A stretch of DNA of 37,906 nucleotides, taken from assembly GCA_963721455.1 (NCBI GenBank), contig CAVRJG010000030.1, positions 1 to 37,906 of the forward strand, read 5' to 3'. This DNA is from an uncultured Methanosarcinaceae archaeon (GTDB lineage: Archaea > Halobacteriota > Methanosarcinia > Methanosarcinales > Methanosarcinaceae). The notes below the pieces were generated by a model, which was not told where the DNA came from, did no database searches, and worked only from the letters and a program-made list of their open reading frames with translations. Positions 27,630 to 28,679 of this stretch are shown here, one piece after another. Each line of letters begins with the position of its first letter. Position 1 is the stretch's first letter. The position numbers and the translations under genes are program-made.

Positions 27630-28106
27630 TTCCCCTTCTTATGAATTTGAATATCGAAGTTTATTTAATTTTTCTTTCTTTTTGTGAGCCGATCCCAAAA
27701 CTAATATTATAGTAAACTCACGAATTAATTACACTTTTAAAAACCAATTAGAGTTTAAAAAGTAAATATTTGCACTTAAATCACTACACGGTTTTATAAA
27801 TACAAAAGACACAGACGGGCAGGGAAAAACCCAATCAAGGCACCTTAGCCACGGAAAACACGGACGGGACAGAAAAACGGTAATTTTGTAAGACACTTAA
27901 AGAATCTACTTTTTACTGGAAAAAGACATGCTTTGAAAAGAATAGTAGTTGCTAACCTCAGGAAAATGAAATACATAGTCATCAATTCAAGAAAAAAGAA
28001 TTACTATAAATTTGCTCGTTATGTCTTGAAAAGATGGCTATGAATGTTATTTTTACTATTTTCTTTCAGGTTGAATAGTTATTTTTAAGCTGCGTCCCGT
28101 GCTTAA

Positions 28107-28184
28107 TCAGCACCAATACCTAATACTGAAGCATACCCTTTCATAGTAGAAGCAGACTCTTGAATAGTAAAAACTGAAGAACAT
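28107..28184 (-). CDS. 25-aa Cys/aromatic peptide MFFSFYYSRVCFYYERVCFSIRYWC
   Basis: GGAGGG RBS 7 nt upstream; paralogue at 28270-28347 differs only by synonymous or conservative changes. Confidence 0.75.
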   Translation of the reverse strand: MFFSFYYSRVCFYYERVCFSIRYWC

Positions 28185-28269
28185 ATCCATACCCTCCACT
28201 CTTTTACATTATCTTTGTTTATTCTATGTTATAGCAGGTCGTTACTTTTAAGCTATGTTCCTTGTTTAA

Positions 28270-28347
28270 TCAGCACCAGTACCTAATACTGAAGCATACC
28301 TTTTCATAGTAGAAGCAGACTCTTGAATAGTAAAAGCTGAAGAACAT
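28270..28347 (-). CDS. 25-aa Cys/aromatic peptide MFFSFYYSRVCFYYEKVCFSIRYWC
   Basis: GGAGGG RBS 6 nt upstream; 3 nucleotide differences from the other copy (Ser and Tyr synonymous, Arg/Lys). Confidence 0.75.
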   Translation of the reverse strand: MFFSFYYSRVCFYYEKVCFSIRYWC

Positions 28348-28679
28348 TTCATTCCCTCCACTCTTTTAGTGTAGATCTGTTATCTTTATTTATCAGTCAT
28401 CTTTGTGCATGTTCTGAGAAAGTAAACGTGTTTTCGAATTCATGCATGTAATCGTTCTTTCACAAACCCTTTACCAACCTCCTGGTCTGTGTCATACTCC
28501 CGGCATCATTAGGAAATAATTTTTTGATGCATTTTCCCTTTAAAAATTAAATGTTCTAAATTTTGATTGCCTGAGAGTATAAACAAATATATAACTGTAA
28601 ATTATATAAGGTCAATAGAATAAATTTTCCTTACTACTAAATAGTGCCTGAAAATCTGTATGAACCTCGGAGTTATAAG

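Follow-up and report, generated by a model that had tools for sequence, protein, structure and literature searches.

A tandem micropeptide gene pair and its promoter cassette

The window considered here, that is, the whole stretch of DNA that was analysed, is a 37,906-nucleotide (nt) contig from the genome of an uncultured Methanosarcinaceae archaeon (assembly GCA_963721455.1, contig CAVRJG010000030.1). It includes, on the minus strand, two tandem genes of 25 codons, copies A and B, which belong to a family of micropeptide genes of the genus Methanosarcina. The two open reading frames (ORFs), each with a GGAGGG ribosome-binding site 6 or 7 nt upstream, had been noticed in an earlier inspection of the letters alone (the sequence-only reading), and their coordinates confirm that description (Table 1). 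Copies A and B form a direct repeat with a spacing of 163 nt, in which a unit of 110-129 nt is 91% identical and the alignment is lost about 20 nt 5' of the ribosome-binding site and about 30 nt 3' of the stop codon. Within the frames 3 of the 78 bases differ, two of them in synonymous codons (AGC/AGT for Ser and TAC/TAT for Tyr) and one exchanging Lys for Arg (AAG/AGG), so that the alignment bears out the claim of exactly three differences inside the ORFs and more diverged flanks. Translation also verified that both peptides have Cys at positions 11, 18 and 25 and that Phe, Tyr or Trp account for 11 of the 25 residues. The surrounding DNA had been described as otherwise gene-free, and no ORF of 90 amino acids (aa) or more is found within 27630-30624, where the longest ORFs code for 63 and 55 aa; the G+C content of this region is 31% vs 42.5% for the genome.

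Such ORFs are rare in the genome. Only 8 of the 32,147 ATG-started ORFs of 18-48 aa found in its 3.94 Mb match the family profile described below, namely the window pair and six ORFs on contig C39. ORFs of 22-32 aa with at least 36% Phe, Tyr and Trp and a strong ribosome-binding site number only six, and all of them are family members. The window pair exceeds the chance expectation by far, and both 25-codon ORFs are real, translated-type micro-protein genes.

A TATA-like sequence suspected near 28580-28610 proved to be real and conserved, and is the TATA box of a promoter element common to the family (Table 1). In an alignment with five homologous elements, invariant columns run through the TATA box and the next 30 nt, and the window site is the only match below E 1e-3 in its own genome when searched with the nhmmer profile of the element. 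In the other loci scanned, including all six satellite loci (see below) and that of the Methanosarcina mazei-type genome G013, the element is on the same strand upstream of the peptide genes, and the window conforms to the family pattern in having it 200-320 nt upstream. The conserved strong promoter would direct transcription from a predicted start near 28579, producing a leader of about 233 nt followed by two cistrons, each with its own GGAGGG site, and the transcript would probably end at the T6 run at 27997-27992. A weaker promoter may be present in each repeat unit as well. The leader includes conserved blocks, one of them a motif resembling a ribosome-binding site at about 28470-28485, approximately 100 nt after the predicted transcription start; across loci the conserved leaders measure 230-280 nt.

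A Methanosarcina gene family under selection on the peptide

A DNA search of 60 relatives detected tandem matches in 11 of 36 genomes of the same genus. Open frames of the same kind were extracted from these matches by script and used to build a profile of 13 peptides and, later, a profile of 91 unique peptides. The first profile matched 42 of 59 Methanosarcina genomes (E up to 0.1), and the second (E up to 1e-3) matched 29 of 44 other Methanosarcina genomes and, among 30 further genera of the order, none of 206 genomes, of which 99 belong to the same family and 107 to five other families. This is the check for conservation across Methanosarcinales that had been proposed with the sequence-only reading, here run by profile. 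The same reading had named broken frames or lost start codons and ribosome-binding sites as observations that would speak against genes, and we looked for these: throughout the genus the frames remain open and the start codons and ribosome-binding sites are retained. Internal stops are absent from all listed matches of the 91-peptide profile, and the few rows with one stop in the 13-peptide search are alignments that overrun a slightly earlier natural stop. Both window ORFs, besides matching the profile, have an intact ATG, a stop codon and a GGAGG-type ribosome-binding site.

Tandem copy number ranges across the family from 2 to about 14; copies are alike within one array, and sequences diverge quickly between species. 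Genomes G078 and G006 have no profile match, yet at the corresponding position in the chromosome they have arrays that have diverged and reach up to about 14 copies. In G007 and G074 other genes occupy the site of the main array next to an ATP-binding cassette (ABC) transporter operon that is still present, and G007 lacks any match to the 13-peptide profile. The family is restricted to Methanosarcina, and a typical genome has two kinds of locus, a main one with 2 to about 14 copies in tandem and a satellite one with one or two.

The sequence-only reading had not recognised the family, which agrees with the absence of any match to Pfam-A (E up to 0.1) or NCBIfam models among the 91 unique peptides. 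Ten family sequences were looked up as exact matches among about 15 billion predicted proteins, and none is present there. When 1.84 billion protein representatives were searched with the profile, nine matched (E up to 1e-3), all of them 25-58 aa long with the family part at the C-terminus and either named 'hypothetical protein' or unnamed. A tblastn search of phage and plasmid collections with the 25-aa peptide gave no match, of which the low-complexity filter may hide some.

Three differences between copies A and B cannot by themselves demonstrate selection, and relatives were therefore examined for it. The 72 unique members of 25 codons were reduced to the 34 closest pairs, using each sequence once so that pairs are independent. 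In the proposed frame the ratio of nonsynonymous to synonymous differences as proportions (pN/pS) is 0.28 and as rates (dN/dS) 0.24, while pN/pS in the two shifted frames is 1.07 and 1.04. Codon position 3 is the most variable, 45% of positions differ in the 40 nt 3' of the stop in the same pairs, and the GGAGG-type site is the most conserved upstream feature among 105 family units. Selection acts on the peptide, as had been suggested from the pair, and not on an RNA.

Constraint on RNA structure, which had also been named as contrary evidence, was looked at in the leaders. RNAalifold applied to 10 of the 17 aligned leaders gave only one 6-bp stem (-2.1 kcal/mol, one compensatory pair). A search of Rfam found no match in the region at gathering scores and, for three loci at E up to 1, only two chance matches to eukaryotic long non-coding RNA families. 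A structured leader RNA or riboswitch is therefore not supported. Most main-locus leaders retain the 6-bp stem, whose pairing is long-range; a convincing consensus fold was not found.

The peptides themselves are short and strongly aromatic. Among the 91 unique sequences 68 are 25 aa long, and Phe (17.6%), Tyr (14.0%) and Trp (1.5%) make up about one third of the residues. Met1, Phe3, Tyr7, Tyr/Phe14 and Tyr23 are nearly invariant, and conservation is spread across positions 1-23 rather than limited to an N-terminal leader; the family peptides have no N-terminal extension usable as a signal or leader. Lys and Glu are found in the middle of the peptides, and there is no clear transmembrane helix. 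The Cys periodicity at 11, 18 and 25, which had been noted in the pair, is not a general feature of the family: 18 of the 91 peptides lack Cys and its positions vary, so that a disulfide-based model cannot explain the family, and the Cys heptad is a trait of the subgroup to which the window belongs. AlphaFold predicted, for a natural 32-aa member, a single helix over residues 3-25 with a mean predicted local distance difference test (pLDDT) score of 68 and a predicted template modelling (pTM) score of 0.29, which is weak evidence for such a structure.

Main arrays, satellite loci and translation

Main loci were fetched from 10 genomes (19-20 kb each) and all of them show the same pattern of ORF sizes. 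The array lies inside a gene-free spacer of 4-5 kb that adjoins a divergent MacB-type ABC transporter operon, which in our genome consists, according to Pfam, of an ABC ATPase, a CARDB/DUF11 protein, a MacB_PCD+FtsX permease, a second ATPase and a second CARDB protein, followed by a MEDS histidine kinase. The order within the spacer is promoter element, a leader of about 200-250 nt, at least one type B gene, the array of type A genes, a second promoter element, 400-500 nt and a type C gene. The type A array has a period of 145-230 nt, with a GGAGG site for every unit. Most arrays also show, in each of their units, a conserved motif of 23 nt that includes a TATA-like core and is located about 45 nt 5' of the ATG, which makes a promoter in each unit possible. 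Many inter-unit spacers include an inverted repeat followed by the 23-nt motif (for example L057:8740-8860 and L066); it is missing from the arrays with a 145-nt period (G066, G008).

The type B peptide is always encoded by the first gene after the main-array promoter and leader; this acidic peptide of 25-29 aa has a high content of Phe, Leu and Gly and a two-fold repeat within its sequence. The type C gene, 0.9-1 kb past the array and with its own copy of the promoter element, codes for a peptide of 32-44 aa that begins like the family members and ends in a basic tail rich in Gly. About 7 kb from the main array of our genome there is a gene for an Rce1-like CAAX/CPBP intramembrane protease (L057:16892-17743, minus strand). 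The bacterial CAAX/CPBP protease family often serves bacteriocin self-immunity.

Satellite loci, seen in G013 and six more genomes, have the order IleRS, MptE-like gene, about 1 kb, promoter element, leader and one or two peptides. The window pair is a satellite locus, and its peptides group with the satellite peptides of G081, G017, G003, G063 and G062. In the close relative G081, positions 714-5101 match contig C38 of our genome (G000) at 92% and the following positions 5112-6689 match window positions 29510-27930, also at 92%. The cassette thus follows IleRS and the MptE-like gene in G081, whereas in our genome both genes are on contig C38 without it. This contiguity in G081, together with the genes on C38 that lack the cassette, indicates that the 1.58-kb block, with a G+C content of 29.1%, has moved. 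Dispersed repeats bracket the relocated cassette, that at 27708-27864 being found on at least 8 contigs and that at 29664-29835 on 4. These and a further one at 30053-30493 are 150-440 nt long, occur on many contigs with 74-90% identity, and may be elements resembling miniature inverted-repeat transposable elements (MITE-like).

Upstream of the promoter element a stretch of 26% G+C includes two pairs of degenerate direct repeats, 28640-28839/28999-29198 (67% over 200 nt) and 28914-28956/29221-29263 (88% over 43 nt), the latter with TATA-like boxes. Several loci have 2-4 copies of the promoter element, and in the M. mazei-type satellite locus a second one (L113, 4569-4465) precedes a different ORF of 30 aa, Cys/Phe-rich and with a strong ribosome-binding site (about 4170-4265, minus strand). 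The cassette may drive further small genes that have gone unrecognised.

The neighbouring gene for a 181-aa PF05618 protease (27084-27629) was considered as a partner of the pair and rejected, as none of 26 Methanosarcina loci with a homolog has a family peptide within 3 kb. Defence-type genes are found in the window at 18476-20737, 24450-26762 and 31342-37790, and include a PAPS-reductase/ferredoxin fusion similar to BrxP (E = 1e-54), a helicase for which the match is PbeA-like (E = 5e-17) and the M, S and R genes of a type I restriction-modification set, of which S looks half-length (216 aa). We read no function into these neighbours because the cassette reached the window site secondarily. 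The window also has group II intron RNA domains at 14420-15130 on the plus strand (Rfam RF02012 and RF00029, 63.5 bits each) and transposase genes at 1327-2337, 3981-4568 and 7342-8970.

Table 1. Features of the micropeptide cassette (window positions) and additional peptide genes of main loci (positions in the named locus).
Feature	Position	Strand	Evidence or remark
Micropeptide gene copy A, 25 codons and TGA	28270..28347	minus	family profile E = 1e-10, own-genome scan
Ribosome-binding site GGAGGG of copy A, 6 nt 5' of ATG	28354..28359	minus	seen in sequence
Micropeptide gene copy B, 25 codons and TGA	28107..28184	minus	3 bases differ from copy A, one giving Lys/Arg; family profile E = 1e-10
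Ribosome-binding site GGAGGG of copy B, 7 nt 5' of ATG	28192..28197	minus	seen in sequence
Conserved family promoter element, TATA box TTATATAA at 28609-28602	28558..28661	minus	nhmmer profile E = 1e-23; conserved across species
Predicted 5' leader, about 233 nt, promoter to copy A	28348..28580	minus	leaders of 17 loci align
First T run (T6) 3' of copy B, candidate archaeal terminator	27992..27997	minus	inferred; would give a transcript of about 590 nt
AT-rich satellite cassette, 1.58 kb (promoter, leader, gene pair, flanks), moved as one block	27930..29510	minus	92% identity over 1586 nt to G081
Type B genes	L057:8644-8733, 9035-9124; L059 ~10188-10265	minus in L059	L057 is the own genome, contig C39; likewise in L060, L063, L062, L112
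Type C genes	L063:10741-10839; L059:8311-8409; L060:11589-11687; L057 ~10500-10615	minus in L059	

A translated member of the family is on record in M. mazei Gö1. In Supplementary Data 5 of PMC11456600 the small ORF sORF_271 (NC_003901.1:3586541-3586624, plus strand, 27 aa) is placed 'on spRNA39' and has the entry 'yes' for manual Ribo-seq curation, and the same row gives no BLASTP hit, no signal peptide and no transmembrane helix (TMHMM). G013 encodes exactly this sequence as its satellite peptide, which matches the family profile with E = 3e-11. The window pair corresponds to sORF_271 on spRNA39 and occupies the same kind of satellite locus; the promoter elements of the window and the M. mazei-type locus are 76% identical over about 100 nt, and the G013 and G081 loci both have IleRS and MptE-like neighbours. 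They differ in that M. mazei has one copy of 27 aa without the three-Cys pattern, whereas the window has a duplicated copy of 25 aa that was relocated. In dual RNA-seq of MetSV infection spRNA39 is one of two host small RNAs that rise by 180 min (PMC9694453). The portions of these two papers that concern them give sORF_271 (PMC11456600) and spRNA39 (PMC9694453) as a table row and a differential-expression mention, respectively, with no family, arrays or function. They were also the only entries found in the literature on the family, its arrays, promoter cassette or function, in a search whose scope did not extend to the 2009 small RNA and 2015 spRNA papers.

As for main-array members, part 4 of the M. 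mazei Ribo-seq table (1.07-1.31 Mb, where rough synteny would place them) lists none, and parts 2, 3 and 5-11 were covered through their 'on spRNA' rows (30 of 31), so that others may be listed there (PMC11456600). Nothing relevant on tandem copies or repeats of this kind was found in what was covered of the supplement and main text of that study (PMC11456600). On the other hand, reads of the raw-read run X24 could be placed on the array of the 5.75-Mb genome G030. The inserts are about 34 nt long; their 5' ends are located 17-18 nt before the A of the ATG, as tabulated at two start codons, and their 3' ends 15 nt after it at four type A start codons, a geometry that would be that of an initiating ribosome footprint if the library is of the footprint type. 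Reads also cover the preceding type B ORF, including its start region. The strand opposite the ORFs has zero depth in every bin of the array span (9282-10307), with sparse reads in the 1-kb flanks. In 17 RNA runs, drawn from 6 studies, 90% or more of the sampled words are present, with the depth of contigs over the array inflated by repeats. RNA-seq contigs were set aside as proof of expression, since depth is clearly above the flanks only in X9 and not in X1 or X12. The family consists of selected, expressed peptides with a high potential dosage.

Possible functions and relation to known systems

Our preferred interpretation, to which we assign a probability of roughly 0.35-0.4, is that the genes code for leaderless aromatic peptides that are predicted to be membrane- or surface-active and are probably exported. 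The tandem copies would supply large amounts of short, very aromatic, near-neutral peptides without a leader, which would partition into or onto the cytoplasmic membrane or the cell surface and self-associate there. Export would probably be carried out by the neighbouring MacB-type ABC system, a putative role suggested by adjacency, and production would respond to envelope stress such as that of late virus infection. A bulk product that is exported or acts on membranes is favoured because the genes are amplified (2 to about 14 copies), because they diverge fast between species while array copies remain alike, and because there are three peptide types per locus. The strong promoter and ribosome-binding signals, the lack of a leader or signal sequence, the constant MacB-type ABC neighbour and the rise in late virus infection argue in the same direction. 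Of the possibilities raised by the sequence-only reading, a membrane-active or self-assembling peptide is thus retained as the best guess, and a disulfide-linked one fell with the 18 Cys-less members.

Several observations weigh against this interpretation. The peptides are not cationic, with net charges from -3 to +4 that are mostly 0 or +1 (mode 0; 91 unique peptides). Their helical hydrophobic moment at 100 degrees has a mean of 0.16 and a mean z of 0.10 relative to shuffled sequences, with z above 1.64 in none of the 91; because the moment does not exceed that of the shuffles, they are not classic amphipathic helices like the modulins discussed below, and such a helix is ruled out as a family trait. 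Satellite loci have no transporter alongside, and the ABC operon is kept in G007 and G074, where the array is missing from the locus; it may be a neighbour merely through the conservation of gene order within one genus. In one array copy of our own genome (L057:9249-9350, contig C39) the frame shifts after codon 15 and continues into an unrelated tail; this copy is decaying, the rest of the array being intact. As to expression, the sORF_271 row has no proteomics or mass-spectrometry entry (PMC11456600), the transcription start and terminator are predictions, and the X24 evidence consists of 68 reads from about 6% of a run that may be of another library type, with four start sites that are not independent since the array copies are repeats.

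In a more elaborate version, which is doubtful though worth keeping in view, the three co-located peptide types, the shared promoter cassette and the arrays of up to about 14 copies would constitute a multi-component system specific to Methanosarcina, an archaeal counterpart of the phenol-soluble modulins or leaderless bacteriocins. Made in bulk, exported and self-assembling, its aromatic products would contribute to the form of the cell surface or of the cell aggregates typical of the genus, or else be active against competitors or in the course of virus infection.

It is rather unlikely that the peptides are micro-proteins of the cytoplasm or membrane that bind to a larger protein complex and adjust its activity, and are neither exported nor toxic. 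There is precedent in the same genus, as the M. mazei small proteins sP26, MtrR and MtrI are reported to act on glutamine synthetase or the Mtr complex; purifying selection on the peptide is compatible with such a role, and the nearly invariant Tyr residues at 7, 14 and 23 would suit a defined binding surface. However, a copy number of 2 to about 14, fast divergence between species with copies alike within arrays, and three peptide types per locus would not normally be expected of a regulator that acts stoichiometrically on a conserved complex.

We regard as unlikely the possibility of type I toxin-like genes, in which membrane-damaging peptides, their translation checked by the long leader and an RNA antitoxin, would cause infection-induced abortive infection or growth arrest, with tandem copies as in the Ibs/Sib or Ldr loci. 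The genes are indeed small, hydrophobic, aromatic, tandemly repeated and intergenic, they have a conserved leader of 230-280 nt with a motif resembling a ribosome-binding site, the window copy is among defence-type genes (BrxP-like, PbeA-like, type I restriction-modification), and spRNA39 is up late in virus infection (PMC9694453). However, the central Lys and Glu and the lack of a clear transmembrane helix, in agreement with the TMHMM result in the sORF_271 row (PMC11456600), do not fit a membrane-damaging toxin, and up to about 14 copies behind one promoter are unlike known type I modules. In addition, spRNA39 is not among the five pairs of spRNA and antisense RNA named in a 2025 preprint, and run X24 has no antisense reads within the array, though a footprint-type library would not show a non-coding RNA.

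Precursors of ribosomally synthesised and post-translationally modified peptides (RiPPs), in which Cys and aromatic residues would be cross-linked by enzymes encoded elsewhere before export, were also suggested by the sequence-only reading. This is quite unlikely, even though the small size of the peptides, their wealth of Cys and aromatic residues, their multiple copies, their variability at some positions and the ABC exporter genes that adjoin the main array would suit it. No radical-SAM, YcaO, lanthipeptide or cyclodehydratase domain was found by Pfam in the long ORFs of the main locus of our genome, parts of two other main loci, one satellite locus or the window within 10 kb; the single radical-SAM gene of the window is 25 kb distant. 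Moreover, 18 of the 91 peptides lack Cys, and in the whole product, of about 25 aa, no leader can be separated from a core. A non-coding RNA or DNA repeat with incidental open frames is very improbable, since, even though the repeats are also conserved at the DNA level and some main-array spacers have an inverted repeat, dN/dS is 0.24 in the proposed frame only, start, stop and ribosome-binding site are kept despite strong sequence divergence, there is no Rfam family match, and one member is listed as translated by Ribo-seq (PMC11456600).

Archaeal small proteins are mostly uncharted, and hundreds of translated M. mazei small ORFs are listed without a function. The present results join one such entry, sORF_271, to a genus-wide, strongly selected, multi-copy family with a promoter cassette and fixed genomic addresses, turning it into a defined genetic system that is open to deletion, induction and assay in the genetically tractable M. 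acetivorans and M. mazei. They also illustrate how much can escape pipelines that are blind to repeats: 25-codon ORFs are passed over by gene callers, and the arrays would be expected to be missed by any mapper that throws out multi-mapping reads. If the peptides are exported or membrane-active, as in our preferred interpretation, they would be the first leaderless peptide effectors of methanogens, with a bearing on aggregation, community competition or the response to viruses.

The family can be compared with three bacterial systems. The staphylococcal phenol-soluble modulin alpha operon consists of tandem genes for peptides of about 20-25 aa that have their own ribosome-binding sites and no signal peptide, are Phe-rich and near-neutral, depend on an ABC exporter and are made at high dosage. 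The Methanosarcina genes are likewise tandem and leaderless with their own ribosome-binding sites, their products are Phe-rich and near-neutral, and MacB-type ABC genes are found by the main array, a likeness of adjacency only. On the other hand, none of the 91 peptides matches the Pfam modulin or delta-lysin families, their hydrophobic moment is not above that of shuffles and the host is an archaeon; export, cytolysis or amyloid formation by these peptides would be a prediction. Leaderless class II bacteriocins such as aureocin A70 and garvicin KS are encoded by three or four tandem leaderless genes by ABC transporter genes, and are strongly cationic, Trp-rich peptides of 30-50 aa. The family resembles them in having tandem leaderless genes next to ABC transporter genes and several peptide types per locus, but its peptides are mostly of 25 aa with a net charge mostly of 0 or +1, which is outside the cationic class of 30-50 aa, and they are not known to be antagonistic.

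We know of no type I system established in archaea. In bacteria, the type I toxin-antitoxin arrays Ibs/Sib and Ldr/Rdl (PMC2887945) share with the family the tandem, intergenic genes for very small hydrophobic peptides and the long 5' leaders. The family differs from them in the central charged residues of the peptides and the many cistrons behind one promoter, and an antitoxin RNA was not found in the X24 reads of the array, which would not show one if the library is of the footprint type. The nearest architectural kin are therefore bacterial, the phenol-soluble modulin operons, the multi-peptide leaderless bacteriocins and the type I toxin arrays, and we file the family under none of them because their defining features are either absent here or beyond sequence-based testing. 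It is a real and largely undescribed gene family of an archaeal genus, composed of tandem leaderless micropeptide genes that have a regulatory cassette of their own, and, should the multi-component system akin to modulins or bacteriocins prove true, it would be the first of its kind described in methanogens.

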